Part shown: positions 1,360 through 26,765 of the stretch, piece after piece | How the letters are laid out: every line of letters begins with the position of its first letter | How positions within the stretch are numbered: the first letter of the stretch is position 1 | Notes under the pieces: model-generated | The model's input: only the letters and a program-made list of their open reading frames with translations | Databases searched by the model: none | What the model was told of the DNA's origin: nothing | Source of the DNA: a virus | Lineage: Duplodnaviria > Heunggongvirae > Uroviricota > Caudoviricetes | Reading direction: 5' to 3' (one strand) | DNA length: 34,271 bases | Virus record (IMG/VR): IMGVR_UViG_2734482775_000003 | Location: 1-34,271 of that record | Made by a program: the position numbers and the translations under genes

Positions 1360-1454
1360 GTTGCAATTCTCCAACGTCTGTATTAATGTTTATACAAATG
1401 AGTTTGATTTGGGGCATCCGTCGCAAGAAATACCCCAAACAGGGAGATTATCAC
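1360..1454. promoter_or_regulatory. Divergent C / early-operon promoter-operator region
   Basis: Intergenic stretch between divergent repressor and first early gene; contains inverted repeat TTTGGGG-N18-CCCCAAA and AT-rich -10-like hexamers. Confidence 0.45.
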
Positions 1455-1781
1455 ATGAATGAAGAACTATTGAGGGCATTGTTTAAGATCCCAGACCCCA
1501 TCACCGTCGATGAATTTGCCCGCCGCACGGGCAAGACCGAATCAGCCGTAAGAAAGTTGGTGGAACGTCGGCTCATCCCTCTGGCTACTGAGCGTGAAGT
1601 TTTAGGCGAGGAAGGAAGTTCACGCCGCCTCCTCATCTTATGGAACGAGTGGCTCGAAATGGTCTATGACGCAACGAAACAGCTTCCTCCTGAGCGTAAA
1701 GATTGGCGCAACCACTGGCTTAATAAAGCTAAGAAGCTGGCGGAAGATTTGGGATTAGGCTTTCTTAATTTTGCTGCATGA
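1455..1781 (+). CDS. First early-operon gene; Cox/Apl-like small DNA-binding regulator (positional call)
   Basis: Good RBS (AGGGAG) before ATG at 1455; first gene divergent from the repressor, the position Cox/Apl occupies in P2/186; sequence similarity to P2 Cox not evident by eye. Confidence 0.4.
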   Translation: MNEELLRALFKIPDPITVDEFARRTGKTESAVRKLVERRLIPLATEREVLGEEGSSRRLLILWNEWLEMVYDATKQLPPERKDWRNHWLNKAKKLAEDLGLGFLNFAA

Positions 1782-1799
1782 GATGCAGGGAGTTTTGAT

Positions 1800-2141
1800 A
1801 TGAAACAGCAACGTAATTCACGCTTTCGTAATGGTGCTGAACGCCACGCTAACCGTTTCGCTACCAGCGCATCACGCAGCAACATCCGCTACAGCCTGAG
1901 TGATACACACGCAACGCCGGATGGCTACCCAGTAAAACAAATCGGCGAGCATGCCTGGCTGATTGAGAAAGCTGGAATCGTGGTCCGCAAATGTCCACGC
2001 AATCCGTTTACCGGAAACCGCATTTTTGCATTGAGCTGCGGCGACAATCAGTTCGGGCAGGATTTCACATTATACGAAGCACTACGCACGGTTGATCGTC
2101 TGCTTCGCGGGCAAAGTTTTATTAAACAGGCTGATTTATAA
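1800..2141 (+). CDS. Hypothetical early protein
   Basis: 113-aa ORF in the early operon, same strand, compact spacing. Confidence 0.45.
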   Translation: MKQQRNSRFRNGAERHANRFATSASRSNIRYSLSDTHATPDGYPVKQIGEHAWLIEKAGIVVRKCPRNPFTGNRIFALSCGDNQFGQDFTLYEALRTVDRLLRGQSFIKQADL

Positions 2142-2151
2142 CAGGTGCTTT

Positions 2152-2430
2152 ATGACCAAAGAGCATGCACAAGGTGTATTTATCCGTTTTATTGATTTTC
2201 GCGGTGAACTGTTATTACGCGCATCAGCCATTGACGGAGTTGTTCCATCCGAAAAAAACGCAGCTACTTACGTTTATCTGAACGGTACGCGCTTGACTGT
2301 GGAGCTTCCGTACCAGACCGTGCGAGAAATCATTAGCGAAGCTGAAAAGGCACGTCAGGTTAATGGCGATGAACCATATATCGAAATTATTTGTATGGAT
2401 TCAGAAGCTGAAATTCAGAAAGCAGATTAA
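2152..2430 (+). CDS. Hypothetical early protein
   Basis: ATG at 2152 in frame with track ORF 2092..2430; ordinary composition. Confidence 0.45.
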   Translation: MTKEHAQGVFIRFIDFRGELLLRASAIDGVVPSEKNAATYVYLNGTRLTVELPYQTVREIISEAEKARQVNGDEPYIEIICMDSEAEIQKAD

Positions 2431-2441
2431 AGGGCGTTGCG

Positions 2442-2684
2442 ATGGGCAAAGAATATAAAACTCTCATTAACAAAGCACTTGAGCGTTTTTATTTTCGCTT
2501 AAGTGCATCAGGCGCTCATGCTGAACGTGCAGCCCGTGACTCATTGACCAGGGCAATCCGGAGTCTGTATGACGTGGCTTTTTACGCTGATGATCTGGAT
2601 GCACTTAACGAACTTTCCGAGCTGATCTGTGCCGCAGAATGCGGGGAACATATTGAACCGTATAAGCTGGGGAATATCGCATGA
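2442..2684 (+). CDS. Hypothetical early protein
   Basis: 80-aa ORF, compact operon spacing. Confidence 0.45.
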   Translation: MGKEYKTLINKALERFYFRLSASGAHAERAARDSLTRAIRSLYDVAFYADDLDALNELSELICAAECGEHIEPYKLGNIA

Positions 2685-2818
2685 GTATATTTATCTCATG
2701 GCTTGTTCTGATTATTTCGGTGGCCTGCGCTATTGGAATTATGCGAATTATTCATTCAGTAAAAAAGATTGAACGTTTTTCACTGGTGAATAACGATACA
2801 AATAAAACATCAAATTAA
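2681..2818 (+). CDS. Possible small single-pass membrane protein (45 aa)
   Basis: ATG overlaps the upstream stop (ATGA); hydrophobic core LVLIISVACAIGIM; below the ORF-track size cut-off. Confidence 0.3.
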   Translation: MSIFISWLVLIISVACAIGIMRIIHSVKKIERFSLVNNDTNKTSN

Positions 2819-2886
2819 ATAAGAAAACGAGAAAACCATCCGTATTAACGGAGGTATTCGCACACGCAAATAACGGAGATACAAAA

Positions 2887-3297
2887 ATGCACGCAAAAGA
2901 AGAAGGTATCATCAGAGCACTGAAAGAAATTTCAAAGACAGAAAACGTAGTAGCGAAAAAAGCCATAGCAAATAATCATATGGACGTCGCAACCCACACA
3001 CTGATAGTCGCAAGAGTCACGGCAGAAGCAGCCGAAATTATCGCAAAACAGGATGCTGAACTGGCGGTTCTCAGAACACAACCCGTCACCGGACTGGATT
3101 TGTCTAACACCGGACGCCTTATTTACACAATTGGCTCGGAGCTACAGCGATACACCATTATCGCCGGGTTACAGGATAAATACCTGATCACTCCTCACCC
3201 CATAAGGGAATCAGAAATTCTGACAAATCTCCGCCTGATAGAGCGCTCTCAAGTCGCATTCATTGATGACGCACAGTGCACCGTATTTAACGCATAG
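2887..3297 (+). CDS. Hypothetical early protein
   Basis: 136-aa ORF with a purine-rich RBS upstream. Confidence 0.5.
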   Translation: MHAKEEGIIRALKEISKTENVVAKKAIANNHMDVATHTLIVARVTAEAAEIIAKQDAELAVLRTQPVTGLDLSNTGRLIYTIGSELQRYTIIAGLQDKYLITPHPIRESEILTNLRLIERSQVAFIDDAQCTVFNA

Positions 3298-3320
3298 GGT
3301 TACTGGACAAAGGGGGCGCA

Positions 3321-3524
3321 ATGGCAATTAAGCATTTTCCCGTCGTTCGCTTTACCTCCAGAGGGCGCGAATACGAGGTCGACGAACGCCTGATTACCAC
3401 TATCGACAAACATCGTTCGGAAAAGGATGCACACCACATCTACCTCACTGACGGCACTTACTTCTGCGCCACTAATGTGGCGCGGGTAAACCTTATCCGA
3501 CAGGTACAGGAGCAGCGTAAATGA
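3321..3524 (+). CDS. Hypothetical early protein
   Basis: 67-aa ORF; start/stop coupled to the next gene. Confidence 0.45.
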   Translation: MAIKHFPVVRFTSRGREYEVDERLITTIDKHRSEKDAHHIYLTDGTYFCATNVARVNLIRQVQEQRK

Positions 3525-3739
3525 GCAGAAGGCGAATCACACGCAGGCATCGCCGCACACACATGAATTCCTTACCGACGCTGAAAGAACTCATTCAACA
3601 CGAGATCGCTGATTTCTGCGCACCGCTGGGGTCGCCTGGTGAACCGGAAACACCAGAAGCGATGCAGCGCGAACTCATGATGCGCATCGATAACGTTTTT
3701 GACTTTTTCCTGAATAACAAAAGAGAGCAATCAACATGA
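3521..3739 (+). CDS. Hypothetical early protein
   Basis: ATG overlaps the upstream stop and the downstream start (ATGA couplings). Confidence 0.4.
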   Translation: MSRRRITRRHRRTHMNSLPTLKELIQHEIADFCAPLGSPGEPETPEAMQRELMMRIDNVFDFFLNNKREQST

Positions 3740-3939
3740 ACAAAAAGACCTGGTTTCGCGCATACATGTGGGCGCTGGTATGCGTCCTCGTCTCTTTCAT
3801 TCTGTATGCAGGACTACTCCCCCGAATGATTTCATCAGACAGCTCCTTCCTGGTATTGCTGGGCATTTTCATTGCCATGCTGTACCCGGCAGGCGTTGTT
3901 CGCCTTTTCAGTAAGTACATCAAGGAAATCAAGCAATGA
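3736..3939 (+). CDS. Small two-helix membrane protein
   Basis: 67 aa with two hydrophobic stretches (WALVCVLVSFILYAGLL and FLVLLGIFIAMLYPAGVV); translationally coupled to the SPFH gene. Confidence 0.55.
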   Translation: MNKKTWFRAYMWALVCVLVSFILYAGLLPRMISSDSSFLVLLGIFIAMLYPAGVVRLFSKYIKEIKQ

Positions 3940-4766
3940 AGAAATTCAAACTCTTTCAGATTCTCCCGCTTTTTGCCGCCATCCTGCTGGTTGGTTGCGA
4001 TCGCGTTGAGCCAGGTAATGTGGGAATCAAAGTCAACAAACTGGGCGACGACAAAGGCGTCGGCGAAGTAGTTGGCGTTGGCCGCTACTGGACAGGCTGG
4101 AATACAGAGGTTTACATCTTCCCGACTTTCAAACAAATGAAGACTTACGATGAGCCGTTCAACTTCCAGATGAGTGACGGCACAACCATCGGCTATCACA
4201 TCGGCGTGGCCTACAAAGTTGATCCATCCAAAGTTACCACGGTGTTTCAGACCTACCGCAAAGGCGTGGACGACATTACCGACACTGACCTGCGCCAGAA
4301 GATCGCCGACGCACTCAACCGACTGGCCAGCAAAATGACCACCGATAAATTCATCGACGGTGGCAAGTCTGAACTGCTGGATTCAGCACTTAAAGATATT
4401 CAGGCAGAAATGACACCCATCGGCATTCAGGTAATGAGCCTCTCTTATGTCGGTAAACCGGAATATCCGCCAACCGTTATCGACAGCATTAACGCCAAAG
4501 TCACGGCAAACCAGAAAACCCTGCAACGCGAACAGGAAGTAAAACAGCGCGAAGCAGAAGCCAACATGTTGCGCGCAGAAGCTGCCGGACAGGCTGATGC
4601 CATTCGCACAAAAGCCCAGGCTGAAGCCGACGCCATTCGTTTACGCGGCGAAGCTCTGCGCCAGAATCCCGGCGTTATGGAGCTGGAAGCGATCAACAAA
4701 TGGAACGGCACGCTGCCGCAATACATGACCAGTAACACCGCTGTTCCGTTCGTTCCCGTGAAGTAA
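3936..4766 (+). CDS. SPFH/band-7 (stomatin/prohibitin/HflKC-like) lipoprotein
   Basis: Lipoprotein signal with lipobox LLVGC; central SPFH-like domain followed by an Ala/Glu/Gln-rich coiled-coil (QREAEANMLRAEAAGQADAIRTKAQAEADAIRLRGEA), the usual architecture of bacterial band-7 proteins. Confidence 0.7.
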   Translation: MKKFKLFQILPLFAAILLVGCDRVEPGNVGIKVNKLGDDKGVGEVVGVGRYWTGWNTEVYIFPTFKQMKTYDEPFNFQMSDGTTIGYHIGVAYKVDPSKVTTVFQTYRKGVDDITDTDLRQKIADALNRLASKMTTDKFIDGGKSELLDSALKDIQAEMTPIGIQVMSLSYVGKPEYPPTVIDSINAKVTANQKTLQREQEVKQREAEANMLRAEAAGQADAIRTKAQAEADAIRLRGEALRQNPGVMELEAINKWNGTLPQYMTSNTAVPFVPVK

Positions 4767-4928
4767 TGACACCCGGCCAGTGCAAACCGCTGGCCGGAGC
4801 AGTATCAGGATTTTTTAGTATGCCGTTCTCACAAAAAAACCGCTTGCCATGCCGCAATCAGTCAGGTTACATTTTCGCTGCACCTCATAAAACGGGTGCC
4901 GGGTTTCGCAGCCTGCTGACTACAAGAG

Positions 4929-4958
4929 CGCACAACCGCGCCAGCGGTTTTTTTGTGC
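4929..4958 (+). terminator. Putative intrinsic terminator inside the early region
   Basis: GC hairpin CCGC-GCCA-GCGG followed by a T7 run, flanked by CGCACAA / TTGTGCG. Confidence 0.4.
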
Positions 4959-5133
4959 GTACTGTATTGCCACGTTTTTTTCGCGTCAGAATTATGGCGG
5001 GGCGTACGGGGCCGACTTCGGTCGGGCCGGGATCTCTTGTAGCCGGTACTGCGAACCTCGTACGTCTCGCCACCCACAGTTTCGCAGCTCTGGATGGTGA
5101 GCTTTCACAACTTACTACAAGAGGCCACATATC

Positions 5134-5364
5134 ATGGCAAACCGCAAACAGCACCGCGCTATCGCGGAGCGTCGTCACATCCAGACTGAAATCAACCGCA
5201 GACTTTCCCGCGCATTCCGCGTCGCTAAAATCATGCACATCAATATGCTGCATGAGCGTAGCTGCGAACTTTCAAACCTCTACTCATCCGCTGTTTTCAG
5301 TTATCTGGCGGATGATCTGCGCGAGCTTCAGCAGCTCATCCAGCAGCAAAACAAACTCCATTAA
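5134..5364 (+). CDS. Hypothetical Arg-rich small protein
   Basis: 76-aa ORF directly after the structured non-coding stretch. Confidence 0.4.
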   Translation: MANRKQHRAIAERRHIQTEINRRLSRAFRVAKIMHINMLHERSCELSNLYSSAVFSYLADDLRELQQLIQQQNKLH

Positions 5365-5436
5365 TTCCTGTTCCGGGCCTTTCCTGCACCTTGCGGCGGG
5401 AGGCCTTCGCACATCTGTAACCAGAGGATTGCCGCA

Positions 5437-5802
5437 ATGATTCTCGCCAACGACTTTCTTGAATACCTGCTCAACACAGAGCGTGATCTTGCCGTTCGCG
5501 TGCGTGAACGTTATGACATGTACCTGAAATCCCTGCCTGTACCGCAGCTCGCTGACGGAAAGATTGTTATTGATGGTCGCTACATGATTGACAGCCACGA
5601 GGGAAATTACAGGCTTTACCGCATTGAAGGTGGCACCCCGTCCGTTATTGGCATTTACCAGCGCCCATCCTCTGCAATCGTCGATGTGATTGCCGACAGC
5701 ATCCGCATCACACATCGCCATGCCGACACAGAAGACACCGTGCTGGAAATTCAGCGGCTGGCTACAGTCTGCCGCGACACCCTGAATGGCATGACGAAGT
5801 AA
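5437..5802 (+). CDS. Hypothetical protein immediately upstream of gpA
   Basis: 121-aa ORF, same strand, 6 bp before the gpA start. Confidence 0.5.
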   Translation: MILANDFLEYLLNTERDLAVRVRERYDMYLKSLPVPQLADGKIVIDGRYMIDSHEGNYRLYRIEGGTPSVIGIYQRPSSAIVDVIADSIRITHRHADTEDTVLEIQRLATVCRDTLNGMTK

Positions 5803-5808
5803 ATCACT

Positions 5809-8631
5809 ATGACGGCAGAGTACATCAGGGACTGGCAACAACCGCGCCACGCAGTAGGACGTGAAGGAACGGGGATCCCCGCACCTGAATCCGCACTTTC
5901 CTCCTGGCTGGATGCCTACCGGGCAGAGAACGAGCGCCGCCAGGAAATGGCTGACGCGGCGTTCTCCGCCACACCGCTGGGCAACCTGATTAATAAAAGC
6001 CTGGACGCACAGGAAAAGCAGGACAAAACCATCACACTGGCCAGAGAAGCCAGAAAACAGGCACGCGGTGCGGTGGATGAAGCCATGGCCTCGCTGCGCC
6101 TGCTGCCGTCCTATCTGCGCGATCCGCTTATTCGCCACCTCTCCTTCCTGCGCAAAAAACAGGAAGCCGATCGCCGGAAAGGCAAAAAGAGCTGGCAGGC
6201 GGAACGCTATGCACGCGGAACCCTGCGCAAAATATTGGAACGTCTGGCCCGCACTGACGGACGCTGGCTGACTCCGGGTTATCGCTCCCTTGCCGGACGT
6301 GAACGTCTGGACGATTTACTTTACCTGCCGCAGCTCAACAAACACCAGATACAGACACTGGCCGTCATGACGGCGGCAATGTTCAGCAGCACCTTCGAAA
6401 AACTCTGCGATGGCTTTGGCGCGACCGATGGCGAGCTGACCATGGATATAACGCTGAAGGCGTATCAGCTGCTGGCTCGCATGGCGTTACATCTGCACAC
6501 AGTGCCTCCGCATTATGACGCACTGACAACAGACAAAGACCGGAGGAACGAACCGGACACAGAACTGCTGCCGGGTGCAATCCTTCGCCTGACCTGTGCG
6601 GACTGGTGGAAACGCAAATTGTGGCTTTTACGTTGCGAATGGAGAGAGGAACAACTCCGCGCTGCCTGTCTGGTTTCCAGAAAAACATCCCCCTATCTGA
6701 GTCAGGATGCATTAAGTGAATTTCGCGCACAGCGCGAGAAAACACGCGATTTCCTGAAAAGTTTCATGCTGGAAAATGAAGACGGGTTCACGATTGATCT
6801 CGAGACGGTGTATTACGCAGGTGTCAGTAACCCGGTCCACCGTAAAGCAGAAATGATGGCCACCATGAAGGGACTGGAACTTCTGGCCGAAGCCCGTGGC
6901 GACAAAGCGGTGTTTCTGACTGTCACCTGCCCGTCAAAATACCACGCCACAACAGAGAACGGTCATCCGAATCCCAAATGGAACGGGGCCACCATGCGCG
7001 ACTCCAGCGATTACCTGGTTAACACGTTTTTTGCGGCGGTCCGCAAAAAACTGAACCGCGACGGCCTGCGCTGGTATGGCATCCGCACGGTGGAGCCTCA
7101 CCATGACGGCACCGTGCACTGGCATATGATGGTCTTTGCTCATCCGGAAGAAATCGACAGCATCGTGGCCATCACCCGCGATATTGCCATTCAGGAAGAC
7201 CGCCACGAGCTGGGCAATGATATTACTCCGCGCTTTAAGGTGGAGTACGTCGACGGCTCCAAAGGCACGCCAACCAGCTACATCGCCACCTACATCGGAA
7301 AAAACCTGGACAGCCGCGCCGTGGATGGAATCGACCCGAAAACGGGCAAACCACGCGTTGACCACGAAACCGGAAAATCAATGGCCGAGAGCGTGGAGCG
7401 CGCCATCGGCTGGGCGCGCCTTCATCGGGTCCGCCAGTTCCAGTTCTTTGGCATCCCCTCCCGTCAGGTGTGGCGTGAACTGCGCCGCCTTGCCAGCCAG
7501 ATGGCACGCAACCCGGAAGGCCCGCAACGGCTGAAGGATGACGCAATGGATGCGGTACTCGCTGCCGCTGATGCCGGATGTTTTGCCACCTACATTGAAA
7601 AACAGGGTGGCGTACTTGTTCCGCGCAAGGACTACCTGATTCGCACAGCCTACGACCTCGCAGATGAGCTGAACGATTACGGCGAACAGAGTGTACAGAT
7701 TTACGGGATCTGGTCGCCATTCATCGGGGAATCCTCCCGTGTGTGCACGCATCCGGATAACTGGAAGCTGGTAAGACGTAAACCGGAAGCGGAAGACAGC
7801 GCCCGCGAAAATGGTTTTGACCTTCAGGGCGGCCCTGCCGCCCCTTGGACTCGTGGCAATAACTGTCCCCGTGTACAGGAAACGGACAACAACGGGACAG
7901 AACAGCCGGAAGAACGGCCAGCACCGTGGCCGCAGCTCCCTGACGGCGTTGAAGTGAACGAATGGATGCGCTCACTGAAACGGCACGAACGCCGGGCGCT
8001 GATGCGTTCGCTTCGTGACAAACAGGCAAAAAACAGCAGTGATGAAATGCAGAGCTGGACACAGAGCCGCAAACAGCAGCGGCCTTTGCCTGATAACCAC
8101 GAATTACTCGCTAAAGAATGGCGGGAGTCTGCTGAATCTCTCGGCCTGCATATCGGTGAACAGCAGATGCAGCACCTGTTACGGGGCGGCAGTCTGTACG
8201 TTGACGGCAGCATCATTGCACCGCAGGGATTTGAAATTGTACGCAAACCGGATACCCGCCCGGACAGCCGAATCACGCAGCTCTGGCAACGCCTGAGCCG
8301 TAATCACGGCGTAAGCAGCACGGAGATCCGCCATAACCCGGTCGCCAGCTATCTGGAACAGCTTGGGGTATCAGACCCTGAAGCCGCCGCACGCCTGGCA
8401 TCCACACTTCAGCAAGACCAGAACACCATGAAAACACCCGTTACCGTGCTTTCTGACATGCTGCGCGCCATCCGCGACGCAGAGCACGCACAGAGAATCA
8501 GTGAAACCACTGAACGCGCCCGCCGCAAAGCAGACCTGCTGCGGGGTGGCCTGACCAGTGGAAACAAAAAACAGACAAAAACGGGATTCACAAATCCCGT
8601 AAATGAGCAAAAAACGCGCCGCGATATATGA
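5809..8631 (+). CDS. A: Rolling-circle replication initiation endonuclease, P2 gpA family (HUH relaxase-type)
   Basis: HUH-type motif TVHWHMMVFAH and paired catalytic tyrosines in SYIATYIGKN; position between the early operon and the packaging genes; about 180 aa longer than P2 gpA as I recall it. Confidence 0.9.
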   Translation: MTAEYIRDWQQPRHAVGREGTGIPAPESALSSWLDAYRAENERRQEMADAAFSATPLGNLINKSLDAQEKQDKTITLAREARKQARGAVDEAMASLRLLPSYLRDPLIRHLSFLRKKQEADRRKGKKSWQAERYARGTLRKILERLARTDGRWLTPGYRSLAGRERLDDLLYLPQLNKHQIQTLAVMTAAMFSSTFEKLCDGFGATDGELTMDITLKAYQLLARMALHLHTVPPHYDALTTDKDRRNEPDTELLPGAILRLTCADWWKRKLWLLRCEWREEQLRAACLVSRKTSPYLSQDALSEFRAQREKTRDFLKSFMLENEDGFTIDLETVYYAGVSNPVHRKAEMMATMKGLELLAEARGDKAVFLTVTCPSKYHATTENGHPNPKWNGATMRDSSDYLVNTFFAAVRKKLNRDGLRWYGIRTVEPHHDGTVHWHMMVFAHPEEIDSIVAITRDIAIQEDRHELGNDITPRFKVEYVDGSKGTPTSYIATYIGKNLDSRAVDGIDPKTGKPRVDHETGKSMAESVERAIGWARLHRVRQFQFFGIPSRQVWRELRRLASQMARNPEGPQRLKDDAMDAVLAAADAGCFATYIEKQGGVLVPRKDYLIRTAYDLADELNDYGEQSVQIYGIWSPFIGESSRVCTHPDNWKLVRRKPEAEDSARENGFDLQGGPAAPWTRGNNCPRVQETDNNGTEQPEERPAPWPQLPDGVEVNEWMRSLKRHERRALMRSLRDKQAKNSSDEMQSWTQSRKQQRPLPDNHELLAKEWRESAESLGLHIGEQQMQHLLRGGSLYVDGSIIAPQGFEIVRKPDTRPDSRITQLWQRLSRNHGVSSTEIRHNPVASYLEQLGVSDPEAAARLASTLQQDQNTMKTPVTVLSDMLRAIRDAEHAQRISETTERARRKADLLRGGLTSGNKKQTKTGFTNPVNEQKTRRDI
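8577..8606. repeat. Palindromic 30-bp repeat, copy 1 (inside the gpA 3' end)
   Basis: caaaaACGGGATTcacaAATCCCGTaaa, internal palindrome ACGGGA/TCCCGT. Confidence 0.6.
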
Positions 8632-8707: not shown

Positions 8708-9667
8708 ATGAAAATTTGTATCGACGACGGCTCCACCAACATCAAGCTGGCATGGACTGAGAACGGCGAACGCCGCAACGCCATCAGCCCGAACAGCTTC
8801 AAGTCGGAATGGTCTGCGCCGTTCTGTGGCACGCAGCCCGCGAACTATATGCTTGATGGCGTGCGCTATGGTTTTGATCCGGTCAGCGATCGCTTTGTCC
8901 AGACGACCGACACGCAATACCAGTACAGCGATGTGAATGTCATTGCCATTCATCACGCGCTGGTCAAATCAGGCATCACGCCACAGGAGGTGGATGTGGT
9001 TGTCACCCTGCCACTGAGCGAGTATTTCGACACAAACGCACAGCCGGACATGACCAACATCAACCGCAAAAAAGCGAACGTTATGCGCCCGGTGGAGTAC
9101 CAGAACGGCGAAGCATTCACTATCCGTAACGTACGGGTTATGCCTGAATCCATTCCGGCTGGCTTTAAGGCACTGGCTGACATGAGTCCGTTTGAATCCC
9201 TGCTGATTGTGGATTTGGGCGGAACCACGCTGGATGTGGCAAAGGTTCAGGGGCAACTGGCAGGTATCAGCCAGATGTTTTGCGATCCACACGTAGGCGT
9301 TTCTCTGATGGCCGATGCCGTACTGTCGGTGATGGCCACTAACGGTATGCGCACCAGTCACCACATCGCCAATACCATTATCGAACATCGCCATGATGAA
9401 GCCTGGCTGCGCCAGCACATCCACAATGACGCGCATTACGCCAGCCTGATGGCGGTTATTCGTGAAAAGGAAGAAACACTGAAACAACGCGTGATCCGCG
9501 CGCTGGCGGGTTTTTCGGGTTACGGGCGGGTGATGGTTGTCGGTGGCGGGGCGGAGATTGTGGCACCCGCTATCCGCGAAGCCTGCGGAGTTAATGCGAC
9601 TTTCATCGCGGACGGGGTGCCACAGTTTGCTCTGGTTAATGGGCTGTACGCAATGGACAAGGAGTAA
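8708..9667 (+). CDS. parM: ParM/StbA-family actin-like segregation ATPase
   Basis: N-terminus MKICIDDGSTNIKLAW, plus YSDVNVIAIHHAL, VMPESIPAGF, LLIVDLGGTTLDV and GYGRVMVVGGGAE, all closely matching plasmid R1 ParM motifs as recalled. Confidence 0.85.
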   Translation: MKICIDDGSTNIKLAWTENGERRNAISPNSFKSEWSAPFCGTQPANYMLDGVRYGFDPVSDRFVQTTDTQYQYSDVNVIAIHHALVKSGITPQEVDVVVTLPLSEYFDTNAQPDMTNINRKKANVMRPVEYQNGEAFTIRNVRVMPESIPAGFKALADMSPFESLLIVDLGGTTLDVAKVQGQLAGISQMFCDPHVGVSLMADAVLSVMATNGMRTSHHIANTIIEHRHDEAWLRQHIHNDAHYASLMAVIREKEETLKQRVIRALAGFSGYGRVMVVGGGAEIVAPAIREACGVNATFIADGVPQFALVNGLYAMDKE

Positions 9668-9671
9668 ACCA

Positions 9672-9986
9672 ATGACGACACCAACCAGACGGATAAGTTT
9701 CTATCTGAAGCCAGTCGCCGTCAATAGTGAACGGGAGGCGTGTAATTACCTCGACAGCCTGCCAGCCTCTGAACGCAGCCGCGCGCAACGCGCGGCCTTT
9801 CTGGCCGGGCTGGCACTCATAAAACGCGATCCTGCATTTGCCTATTGGTTGGCCGAATGGCCGGAAGAAGGAGCTGCGCCAGCCAAGAATAATATTCAGA
9901 GTAAATATGCCAGCGCACCTGCCACCGGAAGCAATCACAGCACTAGCGAGATAAGAAAGAACATTCAGTCATTTTTCCCAGAGTGA
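9672..9986 (+). CDS. parR: ParR/StbB-family centromere-binding adaptor
   Basis: N-terminal region RRISFYLKPV...DSLPASERSRAQRAAFLAGLAL parallels R1 ParR (DSIPQGERSRLNRAALTAGLAL); AAGGAG RBS; directly follows parM as in par operons. Confidence 0.75.
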   Translation: MTTPTRRISFYLKPVAVNSEREACNYLDSLPASERSRAQRAAFLAGLALIKRDPAFAYWLAEWPEEGAAPAKNNIQSKYASAPATGSNHSTSEIRKNIQSFFPE

Positions 9987-24723: not shown

Positions 24724-25325
24724 TGGATAACGCTGTATTAAATAGCGAGATTATTGCCACGAAGGCAGGGAATATTACCGTCTATAACTATGATGGTGAA
24801 ACACGGGAATATATTTCCACTTCAAATGAATATCTTGCCGTTGGTGTTGGTATCCCGGCATATTCCTGTTTAGATTCACCAGGCACATATAAGGCTGGTT
24901 ATGCTATCTGCCGTTCTGCAGATTTTAACTCATGGGAATATGTGCCAGACCATCGCGGTGAAATCGTCTATAACACCGAAACGGGAGAAGCCAAAGAAAT
25001 CACAACTCCGGGTGATTACCCTGAAAATACAACCACTATCGCCCCGTTAACGCCATACGATAAATGGGATGGTGAGAAATGGGTGACCGATACTGAGGCA
25101 CAGCACGGCGCAGCAGTAGATGCAGCAGAAGCACAGCGCCAGTCGCTGATTGATACTGCAATGGCCTCCATCAGTCTGATTCATCTGAAATTACAGGCCG
25201 GACGGAAGCTGACGCAGGCAGAAACAACCCGCCTTAACACTGTGCTGGATTACATTGACGTGGTGACGGCAACAGATACCAGCACAGCGCCGGACGTCAT
25301 CTGGCCTGAACTGCCGGAGGCGTAG
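24723..25325 (+). CDS. G: Tail fibre assembly protein (P2 gpG-like), active orientation
   Basis: 200 aa; start overlaps the H stop. Confidence 0.8.
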   Translation: MDNAVLNSEIIATKAGNITVYNYDGETREYISTSNEYLAVGVGIPAYSCLDSPGTYKAGYAICRSADFNSWEYVPDHRGEIVYNTETGEAKEITTPGDYPENTTTIAPLTPYDKWDGEKWVTDTEAQHGAAVDAAEAQRQSLIDTAMASISLIHLKLQAGRKLTQAETTRLNTVLDYIDVVTATDTSTAPDVIWPELPEA

Positions 25326-25737
25326 GCCATTCAATATCTGGCGCACCGGAAGTATCGACCAGTTCCAGTGCGTCCAGATAATCCAGCCACAAATTATATT
25401 GCGCCAGTTCCTCACCTTTCAGGCGACCAATCGCCGCTTTACCAGGCCATTGCTTACTGTTTATGTATTCGTTGACCTGATTAATCAATTGCTGCTTTTC
25501 CAGTTCGGCTGCGGCAATTTGTTCCTCATGAGTTGGCGGTGGAATATCAATCCATGCAGGCATTCCGTCGATGACACCTCTGTATTTTCCTTCTGGTGCT
25601 TCCTTCATAAATTCGGCGGCAACAGTGTCGTCAATTTCGATTCCATCATCGGGCCATTCGCCGGATTCCTGATAAGCGATTTTAAGCTCCACAGGGAAAA
25701 ACGCATTTTTATCGGCACTGAAAATATATTTCTGCAT
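25297..25737 (-). CDS. Alternative tail fibre assembly protein (G'), silent orientation
   Basis: 146 aa on the opposite strand, convergent with and overlapping G; tail-fibre-assembly-like C-terminus (DTSGAPDIEWP, compare G: DTSTAPDVIWP). Confidence 0.7.
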   Translation of the reverse strand: MQKYIFSADKNAFFPVELKIAYQESGEWPDDGIEIDDTVAAEFMKEAPEGKYRGVIDGMPAWIDIPPPTHEEQIAAAELEKQQLINQVNEYINSKQWPGKAAIGRLKGEELAQYNLWLDYLDALELVDTSGAPDIEWPTPPAVQAR

Positions 25738-25739
25738 TT

Positions 25740-26096
25740 CTACCGTCCTATCGAAATATAACTGAATCTGTATTGCTGTGAGATATCACTGGTTGCCACA
25801 CGCCACGCTGAATTACTGATATGTTCAAAATTTACAGACAAAACCTGCGGGGCAGGATTCGACGGGTCTGACTGAACGGCATCAGACATAACACTGACTG
25901 AAACCATCGGCTGATTAGGGAATGGTATAGGGAAGTGTCCACTGATAAAGCGGGTCGTGTTTCCTGAAAAAGTGCCAAACTGAACAATATATCCACCTGG
26001 TAGCCTGAACCATCCCGAACCAGAAGCGAATGCTCCCATATCCGGTATCTGATTATCTCCTGTGCCCACATCCCTTTTCGCCGCTTCTCCCAAACC
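25740..26096 (-). CDS. Alternative tail-fibre C-terminal cassette (H' variable part); promoterless, expressed only after inversion
   Basis: Minus-strand reading frame continues through the right hix site encoding ...NVGLGEAAKRD..., in frame with H ...YLGLGE at the left site; track ORF 25740..26138 covers it. Confidence 0.65.
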   Translation of the reverse strand, partial: GLGEAAKRDVGTGDNQIPDMGAFASGSGWFRLPGGYIVQFGTFSGNTTRFISGHFPIPFPNQPMVSVSVMSDAVQSDPSNPAPQVLSVNFEHISNSAWRVATSDISQQYRFSYISIGR

Positions 26097-26109
26097 AACG
26101 TTTAAGAAA
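26084..26109. other. hix/gix-like recombination site (right)
   Basis: TTCTCCCAAACC-AA-CGTTTAAGAAAA; resembles Hin hixL TTCTTGAAAACCAAGGTTTTTGATAA as recalled. Confidence 0.7.
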
Positions 26110-26165
26110 ATGCAGAGATTACGGCTAACTGGCATCATCCCCGGTTTTTATTCAGGGGATCCATC

Positions 26166-26765
26166 ATGCTTATTGGCTATGTCCGCGTATCAACAAATGA
26201 CCAGAATACAGAATTGCAGCGTAACGCGCTGGAGTGCGCAGGATGTGAACTGATTTTTGAAGATAAAATCAGCGGAACGAAATCAGCCAGACCGGGATTG
26301 AAAAAACTGCTCAGAACGCTATCAGAAGGAGATACGCTGGTTGTCTGGAAGCTGGACAGACTGGGCAGAAGTATGAAACACCTGATCACGCTTATTGAGG
26401 AATTGCGGGAAAAAGGTGTTAATTTCCGTAGTCTGACGGACAGCATTGACACATCAACACCCATGGGGCGTTTCTTTTTTCACGTCATGGGAGCTTTAGC
26501 CGAAATGGAACGTGAATTAATTGTAGAGCGTACACTGGCCGGGCTGGCAGCAGCACGCGCACAAGGACGCATTGGCGGACGTCGCCCGAAGTTGACAAAA
26601 GAACAACACGAGCAAATAGCGAGGCTGATTAAAAACGGTCATGACAGGAAACAACTGGCGATCATTTACGACATCGGCATATCGACGATTTATCGTTATC
26701 ACCCTGTAGGCGATATACAGGCTGAAGAAACAACCAGGCAGATTCAGGAAAATGAAAACCGCTAA
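26166..26765 (+). CDS. Serine DNA invertase, Hin/Gin/Cin/Pin family
   Basis: N-terminus MLIGYVRVSTNDQNTELQRNALE with catalytic Ser; LDRLGRS motif; C-terminal HTH (GISTIYRY); 199 aa. Confidence 0.9.
   Translation: MLIGYVRVSTNDQNTELQRNALECAGCELIFEDKISGTKSARPGLKKLLRTLSEGDTLVVWKLDRLGRSMKHLITLIEELREKGVNFRSLTDSIDTSTPMGRFFFHVMGALAEMERELIVERTLAGLAAARAQGRIGGRRPKLTKEQHEQIARLIKNGHDRKQLAIIYDIGISTIYRYHPVGDIQAEETTRQIQENENR

Follow-up and report, generated by a model that had tools for sequence, protein, structure and literature searches.

Why should a bacteriophage carry, among its early genes, a lipoprotein of the SPFH/Band_7 family together with a tiny membrane protein? The question is raised by a viral sequence of 34,271 nucleotides (nt) (IMG/VR record IMGVR_UViG_2734482775_000003), referred to here in its full length as the window, which is a P2-like prophage of the P88/Xuanwuvirus type. 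A first-pass annotation of this DNA had singled out four consecutive genes on the + strand, chained by overlapping start and stop codons. These genes are present where they were placed, the ATGA overlaps are found at all three junctions (3521-3524, 3736-3739 and 3936-3939), and because each open reading frame (ORF) strongly matches a PHROG family, the four are to be regarded as real genes and not as chance ORFs:

Positions 3321 to 3524, + strand: ORF1, 67 amino acids (aa), an upstream backbone early gene (phrog_3459, E 5e-45).
Positions 3521 to 3739, + strand: ORF2, 72 aa with an Arg-rich N-terminus, a backbone or mosaic early gene (phrog_4144, E 6e-28).
Positions 3736 to 3939, + strand: the hairpin gene, 67 aa with two transmembrane (TM) segments (phrog_1130 'membrane protein', E 3e-22).
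Positions 3936 to 4766, + strand: the SPFH/Band_7 lipoprotein gene, 276 aa (phrog_200 'lipoprotein', E 7e-112).

A Shine-Dalgarno-like AAGGA (3922-3926) lies 9 nt 5' of the SPFH start, and a GAGAG (3723-3727) lies 8 nt 5' of the start of the hairpin gene. Searches of Pfam and NCBIfam returned no informative match for ORF1, ORF2 or the hairpin protein. Judged by comparison among phages, the last two genes (3736-3939 and 3936-4766) make up a self-contained, horizontally mobile phage accessory module to which ORF1 and ORF2 do not belong, and the best overall explanation, which we regard as evenly balanced between right and wrong, is that this mobile pair would build a membrane cage acting on a component of the host.

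That the unit comprises two genes and not four emerges from close relatives of the window. In phage Chuche a 390-nt ORF and gene A come straight after ORF1 and ORF2, with no SPFH pair, and 569R5 and P884B11 carry ORF1 followed by different genes, again with the pair absent. The DNA of ORF1 is 86-100% identical in P2-like phages that lack the pair, and the 3' half of ORF2 is common to different genes in P88, 569R5 and P884B11. Relative to 569R5 and P884B11 the window holds an extra segment of about 1.1 kb, placed by BLAST breakpoints at ~3730-4830, with homology resuming at 4830. This segment is missing from 569R5, P884B11 and Chuche, which are otherwise collinear, and so has the presence/absence pattern of a moron; its content is the hairpin gene, the SPFH gene and a short stem-loop at the 3' edge:

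Positions 4773 to 4797, + strand: GC-rich stem-loop of 10 bp immediately 3' of the SPFH stop (RNA fold -23.2 kcal/mol, z -2.5).

A T-run at 4811-4816 lies 13 nt from the stem, and the terminator scan made no call at 4773-4797; the structure may serve to stabilise the RNA or to terminate transcription weakly. The pair stands behind a different upstream gene in P88 (gp10, Ead/Ea22-like), and between unrelated phages DNA conservation is confined to the mature SPFH core (window 3987-4733), which is ~92% identical to phiP27 and the Shiga toxin (Stx) 2a-converting phages and 79% identical to Fraca. Since relatives devoid of the pair keep ORF1 and ORF2, the ATGA links of these two genes reflect the compact architecture of phage operons and not membership in the module. 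The view of the four genes as a single module therefore gives way, ORF1 and ORF2 being backbone genes that occur without the pair. The accompanying claim that SPFH proteins lie outside the P2-type early backbone holds, given their absence from 569R5, P884B11 and Chuche; across the P2-like phages compared, the cassette is not universally conserved.

The two genes of the inserted segment keep each other's company across a wide range of phages. Every annotated phage inspected has a small gene directly upstream of, or overlapping, the SPFH gene, and several of these small genes are labelled 'membrane protein'. When a hidden Markov model (HMM) of the hairpin was run against 19,445 six-frame ORFs of 267 loci at E <= 1e-3, all of its 220 first-pass matches fell 5' of an SPFH gene on the same strand and none fell elsewhere; most of the lineages negative in that pass carry a two-TM ORF that is divergent but still shows the motif in variant form, and after one iteration a hairpin was found upstream in 250 of 264 SPFH loci, corresponding to 37 of 42 lineages defined at 90% identity. 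A profile search conducted from the hairpin side gathered 81 clusters, all of them small 'hypothetical' proteins, and at each of the 15 genomic places examined for three such clusters a Band_7 gene lies directly downstream, with a 4-nt overlap where the SPFH gene is intact. The two proteins also occur as one. N-terminal extensions of at least 54 residues are present in ~20 of 150 representative SPFH clusters (~13%), and 20 of the 22 long homologues inspected are in-frame hairpin-SPFH fusions; 19 of these have the hairpin ahead of the signal peptide, lipobox and SPFH domain, so that the SPFH domain comes after three hydrophobic segments, and in the remaining one (P0148) the hairpin is fused at the C-terminus. 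Because natural fusions occur in both orders, the two proteins can be taken to act together. By its placement the hairpin appears to be an obligate partner of the SPFH gene, and the earlier suggestion that the SPFH protein works with a small membrane partner finds strong support in the conserved adjacency and the natural fusions. Only one SPFH gene is found in the window and in all related loci.

Some loci depart from this arrangement: a number are truncated, one has its gene order reversed, and in two IS1 lies between the genes. The last two (L095 and L096, from Shigella flexneri and E. coli chromosomes) have a spacer of ~770 nt (~2237-3003) with IS1 InsA/InsB-like ORFs that splits the hairpin from the SPFH gene; the insertion changes the hairpin C-terminus and probably inactivates translational coupling. 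One Stx-type group has a 78-aa hairpin ORF that overlaps the SPFH start by ~20 nt instead of 4. The hairpin ORF is present and unannotated in the records of phiP27 (L002, ~3760-3950) and Stx2a phage EH2201 (L084, 3760-3948), the loci covered by these observations including L061-L083; the phiP27 and EH2201 records label the SPFH gene 'serine protease', and L084 has a further 35-aa single-TM mini-ORF at ~3628-3735.

The 67-aa partner is, as had been proposed, a two-helix membrane hairpin, with hydropathy TM segments at residues 12-28 and 39-55 and AlphaFold helices at 3-32 and 37-66 (predicted local distance difference test score, pLDDT, 86). Pro29, at the end of helix 1, is invariant in the hairpin alignments; the turn motif P-x-[LMF]-[ILVM]-[SN] is conserved, as is a Gly in helix 2. 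Since the tails are rich in K and R and the turn is neutral to acidic, the protein is predicted to have both termini inside (N-in/C-in), which would put the conserved motif at the periplasmic interface. Against Pfam at E <= 0.1 it yields a sub-threshold RseC_MucC match only, with no NfeD and no holin family, and PHROGs places its family in the category 'moron/host takeover'. Its sequence drifts far more than that of its neighbour: identity to the window proteins is 91% for the SPFH protein vs 22% for the hairpin in the Stx2a phage, 78% vs 27% in SSU5 and 70% vs 40% in S6, from which the partners appear to evolve at very different rates. Two TM helices would also fit a class II holin or pinholin, a candidate that was rejected on two counts: in the contexts examined the hairpin gene is never found in a lysis cassette, and the protein has no Pfam holin match.

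The identity of the last gene as SPFH/Band_7 is borne out by a PF01145 match of 108.8 bits against a cut-off of 23.6 (E 4e-31) that spans residues 23-209 and profile positions 2-176 of 176. The lipobox noted in the first-pass annotation is likewise evident in the N-terminus, MKKFKLFQILPLFAAILLVGC followed by DR, in which a basic n-region and a hydrophobic core precede L-V-G-C and Cys21. The call was made by hand, by a rule that combines a basic n-region, a hydrophobic h-region and [LVI][ASTVI][GAS]C with the Cys at about residue 15-35:

Positions 3936 to 3998, + strand: signal peptide and lipobox L18-V-G-C21, from a reading of the sequence.
Positions 3999 to 4001, + strand: Asp22 at +2, a predicted inner-membrane retention signal.

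Both Cys21 and Asp22 are conserved at 90% or above among 27 homologues, which are enterobacterial. Asp at +2 reportedly acts as an inner-membrane retention signal in E. coli under the Lol-avoidance rule; the influence of Arg at +3 on Lol avoidance is uncertain. Among dereplicated relatives a lipobox is present in 66, with Asp at +2 in 35 of them, and an uncleaved hydrophobic N-terminal anchor takes its place in 12. A populous enterobacterial subgroup (P0116 and P0119, the latter on 175 contigs) has Tyr in place of the lipobox Cys (..GIIGYDRVEPG..), so that its members would not be lipidatable and would be either signal-anchored or released to the periplasm.

The AlphaFold model of the SPFH protein (pLDDT 73) is beta-rich at 21-95, with helices at 97-162, a strand at 164-176 and a helix at 179-243; what had been described as a coiled-coil tail is this last helix of 65 residues. 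Near the C-terminus runs a prohibitin-like motif, NP-x-V-x-x-L-E-A-I-x-K-W-N-G. Foldseek gave full-length top matches at E ~1e-13 to prohibitin (8rrh), HflK/C (7vhq, 7wi3, 9cz2) and erlin1/2, and lower matches to stomatin, flotillin, QmcA-YbbJ and major vault protein, the probability being 1.00 for prohibitin, HflK/C, erlin, stomatin and flotillin. A PDB sequence search recovered only PHB2, HflK and HflC, weakly (E ~1e-3) and chiefly through the common C-terminal motif, and a fold search of BFVD recovered only uncharacterised viral SPFH proteins. The top fold matches, prohibitin, HflK/C and erlin, all sit on the non-cytoplasmic side of their membranes. Because the lipobox, the Asp at +2, the TM-anchored relatives and the fusions agree, the SPFH domain is predicted to lie in the periplasm, tethered to the inner membrane, and the protein to be a periplasm-facing scaffold resembling the prohibitin and HflK/C cages.

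How near the pair comes to any known system can be judged from three comparisons. Prohibitin (PHB1/PHB2) offers the best Foldseek match (8rrh, E 7e-14), which extends over the full length, from the SPFH domain through the long helix to the C-terminal segment, and it offers also the best PDB sequence match, through the common C-terminal motif GEAL-x-x-NP-x-x-x-x-L-x-x-I. In prohibitin an energy-transducing membrane carries the SPFH domain on its non-cytoplasmic face, as is predicted for the phage protein, and some phage homologues are annotated 'prohibitin family protein'. The phage protein differs in being lipid-anchored through the lipobox Cys, whereas prohibitin is held by an N-terminal TM helix, and identity is ~14-15%; moreover, the module has one SPFH gene in place of a PHB1/PHB2 pair, adds a dedicated two-TM hairpin and is encoded by phages. 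With the HflK/HflC-FtsH complex the protein shares a periplasm-facing SPFH cage on the inner membrane (predicted here), structural matches at E 1e-13 to 1e-11 (7vhq, 7wi3, 9cz2), weak sequence similarity and a historical connection with phages through lambda CII stability. Here too a lipid anchor and separate hairpin contrast with an intrinsic TM helix, and a single gene with a heterodimeric pair. Orthology to HflK/HflC was rejected, the scores reaching 24.8 bits vs 134.4 for the NCBIfam equivalog hflC and 22.7 vs 159.4 for hflK, with no second SPFH paralogue.

The third comparison is with the SPFH-NfeD operons (QmcA-YbbJ, YqiJ-YqiK), where an SPFH gene is co-transcribed and, as here, conserved beside a small membrane partner and where QmcA-YbbJ (8z5g) is among the fold matches. 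QmcA and YqiK of E. coli face the cytoplasm. The phage SPFH domain is predicted to be periplasmic, in contrast to those of QmcA and YqiK. An NfeD relationship, which had been entertained for the partner, did not materialise: the hairpin consists of two helices only, has no match to NfeD (PF01957) and, at 67 aa, is too small for an oligonucleotide/oligosaccharide-binding (OB)-fold domain, so that an SPFH-NfeD pair was discarded. A protease was discarded as well, no peptidase family being found among the Pfam and NCBIfam matches; the recurrent 'serine protease' label, unsupported by these profile searches, probably derives from old HflC/NfeD naming. The direct orthologues of the window pair are P88 gp11 and gp12 (gp12 99.3% and gp11 ~96% identical), and others with the same order and overlap are phiP27 L05, SSU5_061/062, PVP-SE1 gp115/gp117 and phiE125 gp44/gp43. 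Annotations of the orthologues extend only to 'lipoprotein', 'putative SPFH domain protein', 'serine protease' and 'membrane protein'.

The module is widely, if thinly, spread. A set of 5.8 billion proteins contains 646 close relatives of the SPFH protein, 72-96% identical, from Escherichia, Salmonella, Klebsiella, Enterobacter and Citrobacter, phage records included, and an exhaustive search of cluster representatives returned 2,867 SPFH clusters at E <= 1e-3 and 222 at E <= 1e-30. Among 50,697 annotated phage records, 380 (~0.75%) encode a relative. The temperate carriers include P88, Stx2a- and Stx2d-converting phages, phiP27, Fraca, Burkholderia phiE125 as well as the phage-plasmid SSU5; among those that are virulent or large are Schitoviridae (Erwinia S6, phiEaP8), Vequintavirinae (PVP-SE1), Bruynoghevirus (Ab22) and phiCbK-like Caulobacter phages, and further a crAss-like phage, Lak megaphages and a 349-kb jumbo phage. 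The gene is present in 393 of 5,426 complete E. coli genomes (7%), with a full-length P88-type pair in 145, and 34 of the E. coli places are on plasmids, those listed being ~90-100 kb. Non-phage chromosomal contexts are poorly sampled, the genome scan with one SPFH alignment (A3) having given 20 loci and a second (A2) being too divergent for a pattern-based scan. The mature SPFH protein is 70-93% identical across myo-, sipho- and podoviruses, which suggests constraint by self-assembly and by a conserved partner on the host side rather than by a fast-evolving phage target. A locus on the chromosome of Salmonella enterica strain s1 (L094) encodes an SPFH protein 100% identical to that of the window, compared with 99.3% for P88, the closest record of an E. 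coli-host phage, and the P88-type element thus circulates across genera. From its distribution the pair appears to be both ancient and mobile.

When the pair might be expressed is suggested by its surroundings, of which the landmarks in the window are the following:

Positions 1 to 1023, - strand: integrase.
Positions 1057 to 1374, - strand: helix-turn-helix repressor C.
Positions 1386 to 1781, + strand: Cox-like gene, divergent from repressor C.
Positions 5809 to 8631: replication gene A (Phage_GPA, E 4e-129).

Between the Cox-like gene and gene A runs a series of small + strand genes, and the pair is found to the Cox side of the switch; it shares the strand of cox and comes 3' of tightly packed early genes, the hairpin start overlapping ORF2. 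A scan of 1386-4766 for terminators and promoters found none that was convincing, and no sigma-70-like promoter upstream of 3736. From position only, that is, from the cox strand, the tight packing and the want of an intervening terminator or promoter, we infer that the pair is transcribed within the early operon. Lambdoid prophages always show the order S24-repressor, small genes, hairpin, SPFH, (xis), int, a block position equivalent to the lambda PL accessory region; in the lambdoid copy examined nothing upstream of the hairpin gene makes a convincing promoter, and the consensus match that there is, a weak one, begins inside that gene. In virulent phages the module is placed among early or DNA-metabolism genes, and in all contexts examined it was never found in a lysis or structural module. 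The early-lytic position, taken with abundance in strictly virulent phages, argues for a primary role in lytic development and not for a defence or conversion function expressed by the prophage. The original framing of the locus as prophage defence, abortive infection or lysogenic conversion accordingly fits poorly: the SPFH protein has no PADLOC match, the genes sit in lytic early operons, and they are found equally in virulent phages (Schitoviridae, Vequintavirinae, Bruynoghevirus and phiCbK-like phages).

A mechanism can be proposed in four steps of decreasing security. The pair would first be transcribed with the early lytic genes, as its position suggests, and the ATGA overlap would couple translation so that the two proteins are made in similar amounts. 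The 67-aa protein would then enter the inner membrane as an N-in/C-in helical hairpin, while the SPFH precursor would be exported, lipidated at Cys21 and held in the inner membrane by Asp22, leaving the SPFH domain in the periplasm; this second step draws support from relatives in which a TM anchor is used or the SPFH protein and the hairpin are fused. Taken jointly, these two steps are probable. In the third, the long helix of the SPFH protein would mediate its oligomerisation into a membrane-seated ring or dome, as in prohibitin, HflK/C and erlin, and the hairpins would line the rim of the ring by way of the conserved turn motif, giving a transmembrane 'fence' that a lipid anchor cannot provide. 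Drawn from the fold, the universal adjacency and the natural fusions, this step is somewhat favoured. Last, the fenced patch of membrane might capture or regulate a conserved component of the host inner membrane during infection, with FtsH as the prime candidate because it is a client of both HflK/C and prohibitin-type cages; the alternative is that the cage protects the integrity of the inner membrane in general. This last step is speculative, FtsH enters by analogy, and we consider it possible but on the less probable side. Put in its boldest form, the proposal is that phages of many families build a periplasmic cage of minimal size from what amounts to an HflK-like protein in two parts, with the transmembrane hairpin as 'fence' and the lipid-tethered SPFH protein as wall. 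It would be deployed early to corral a conserved host inner-membrane machine, most plausibly FtsH, or alternatively the DNA-entry channels of competing phages, and would so be a general, hitherto unrecognised device of host takeover; in this full form the proposal is doubtful.

Several observations weigh against this account of a mobile, cage-forming pair. Homologues from outside the Enterobacteriaceae often have Ser, Glu or Gly at +2, and inner-membrane retention is therefore not to be generalised beyond enterics. The C-terminal 33 residues of the SPFH model have a pLDDT below 50, a low confidence that is expected for elements dependent on oligomer formation. The near-universal pairing is qualified in two respects: the second HMM pass was partly circular, its 13 hand-added seeds having been picked from upstream positions, and some phages carry a different ORF upstream of the SPFH gene, namely one of 72 aa with 1 TM ending ...ITPLLYK in LUZ24-like phages and one of 116 aa with 3 TM in phiCbK-like phages. 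No finding made here ties the module specifically to FtsH, the SPFH protein scores far below the HflK/HflC equivalog cut-offs, and there is one SPFH gene only and no K/C pair. Finally, the timing of expression, lipidation, localisation, oligomerisation, contact between hairpin and SPFH protein, and the host target are all predicted properties.

Foremost among the rival explanations is superinfection exclusion or anti-phage defence, by which the pair would block genome entry by other phages, or kill the cells that they infect, whether in a lysogen or soon after infection begins. An envelope pair that is early and non-essential would share the location and timing of known exclusion proteins such as T4 Imm and Sp, P22 SieA, HK97 gp15 and TP-J34 Ltp. 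The PHROGs category of the hairpin points the same way, the SPFH gene of the Vi01-like phage PhiSH19 adjoins a gene annotated 'superinfection exclusion protein', and virulent carriers are compatible with this reading since early exclusion genes occur in virulent phages as well. It is nevertheless unlikely, although exclusion in the course of an ongoing infection is possible. A scan of the four proteins and their neighbours against PADLOC-DB v2 matched no known defence system, giving no match for the SPFH protein, ORF1 or ORF2 and, for the hairpin, only a weak sub-threshold match of 21 residues to PDC-M18B (E 0.007), and Pfam gave no match to Imm or Sie families. Expression from a repressed prophage is improbable for a pair in a Cox-side lytic operon with no internal promoter detected. 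Moreover, exclusion proteins are usually tailored to the entry route of their own phage, yet the SPFH protein stays 70-93% identical across phages with differing entry machineries, which suggests a conserved target on the host side.

A second rival, a role in lysis timing or membrane integrity, in which the cage would keep the energised inner membrane stable or hold back small membrane proteins of the holin kind and the infected cell would thereby remain productive until programmed lysis, is quite unlikely. A connection of SPFH proteins with membrane-stress responses is on record, as in the case of B. subtilis YdjI/SamI and PspA (PMC8581546), the hairpin is like a class II holin in size and topology, and the module is early in virulent and temperate phages alike; against these stand its constant absence from the lysis cassette in the contexts examined and the lack of a Pfam holin match for the hairpin. 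A lysogenic conversion or virulence role, with the lipoprotein displayed or released (in vesicles, for instance) to act on an animal host, is very improbable. It draws on PM0222, an 'HflK/C-like' SPFH protein of a Pasteurella multocida lambda-like prophage that reportedly is secreted in outer-membrane vesicles, stimulates Toll-like receptor (TLR) 1/2 signalling and contributes to mouse virulence (PMC9872710), and on the frequency of the gene in Stx-converting phages. The membership of PM0222 in the present SPFH family is unconfirmed, however, TLR1/2 is activated by any triacylated lipoprotein, the pair has a lytic-operon position, and the module abounds in virulent phages of Erwinia, Caulobacter, Pseudomonas and Burkholderia, plant, soil and water bacteria for which interaction with animals is irrelevant. 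That all four ATGA-linked genes of 3321-4766 form one functional four-protein system has next to no probability, for the three successive ATGA overlaps that speak for it are commonplace where phage operons are compact, ORF1 is found with DNA identity of up to 100% in phages lacking the pair and together with ORF2 in Chuche, and the upstream neighbours are gp10 in P88 and wholly different again in lambdoid, N4-like and other phages.

Other features of the window lie beside the pair without forming part of it. An arginine-rich stretch at the start of ORF2 (window 3521-3565), MSRRRITRRHRRTH, is like the RNA-binding arginine-rich motifs of lambdoid N proteins, and Met15 is a possible alternative start. 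A 45-aa single-TM ORF at 2681-2818 (P88 gp07, 'membrane protein') overlaps the 3' end of the DUF4754 gene and is another tiny membrane protein of the early operon, kept in relatives without the SPFH pair. To the 3' side of the SPFH gene are an isrK-like Hfq-binding small RNA (4880-4954, 66.7 bits) and a C4 antisense RNA (4990-5077, 81.1 bits), preceded by sigma-70-like promoter matches at 4844-4873 and 4967-4995 respectively, and then a 76-aa ORF (5134-5364) of the Pfam 'Derepression' family (P88 gp14). The stretch 4844-5364 looks like an RNA-controlled anti-repressor module of the P1 immI type within the early region of a P2-like phage; 569R5, P884B11 and P88 share it and Chuche lacks it. A 224-aa ORF at 4766-5440, considered as a further gene of the operon, is probably spurious, as it overlies the Rfam-supported isrK and C4 RNAs, has a Ser/Arg/Thr/Gly-rich composition unlike that of a protein, and corresponds to a region that RefSeq annotates differently in P88; the equivalent 618-nt ORF is labelled 'transcriptional regulator' or 'hypothetical protein' in P884B11 and 569R5. 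After gene A comes a plasmid-type segregation pair (8708-9986) of ParM (StbA_N, E 1e-81) and a Plasmid_stab_B protein, likewise found in P88, which suggests that P2-like phages of the P88 type may be capable of persisting or segregating as an episome, and this is followed by the standard P2-type structural and lysis block. A serine invertase (Resolvase and HTH_7, 26166-26765) beside the tail-fibre genes, with opposite-strand ORFs at 25297-26138, suggests that 25297-26765 is an invertible tail-fibre (host-range) segment of the Mu Gin or P1 Cin type.

No functional study of phage SPFH lipoproteins was found in the literature searched. The reason for the presence of SPFH genes in phage genomes is said there to remain 'unclear' (PMC13239085), and HflK/C has been invoked by analogy (PMC4936722); the mentions of 'band 7' in a phiCbK paper refer to gel bands, not proteins. 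The genes themselves are already known, having been deposited as P88 gp11/gp12 with 96-99% identity to those of the window. What appears to be undescribed is the module as such, together with the near-universal pairing of hairpin and SPFH genes, their natural fusions, the predicted periplasmic, lipid-tethered topology and the spread over temperate and virulent phages.

The pair is one of the more widespread early accessory modules without an assigned function, and it is common to temperate phages (P2-like, Stx-converting and phage-plasmids) and to virulent phages used in therapy and biocontrol (N4-like, PVP-SE1-like and LUZ24-like). At the level of annotation, the comparison bears on the 'serine protease' label and on the missing hairpin ORF in the records of phiP27 and Stx2a phage EH2201. 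How SPFH cages (HflK/C, prohibitin, flotillin, erlin, stomatin and QmcA-NfeD), the structures of which have only recently been resolved, choose their clients is still an open question, and the phage version, at ~340 residues in total and with both a hairpin partner and fused forms, would offer a small, genetically accessible system in which to study the assembly and contents of such cages. Should the module prove to control FtsH or membrane integrity, it would represent a general step in host takeover; should it instead exclude other phages, it would represent a new mechanism of exclusion.

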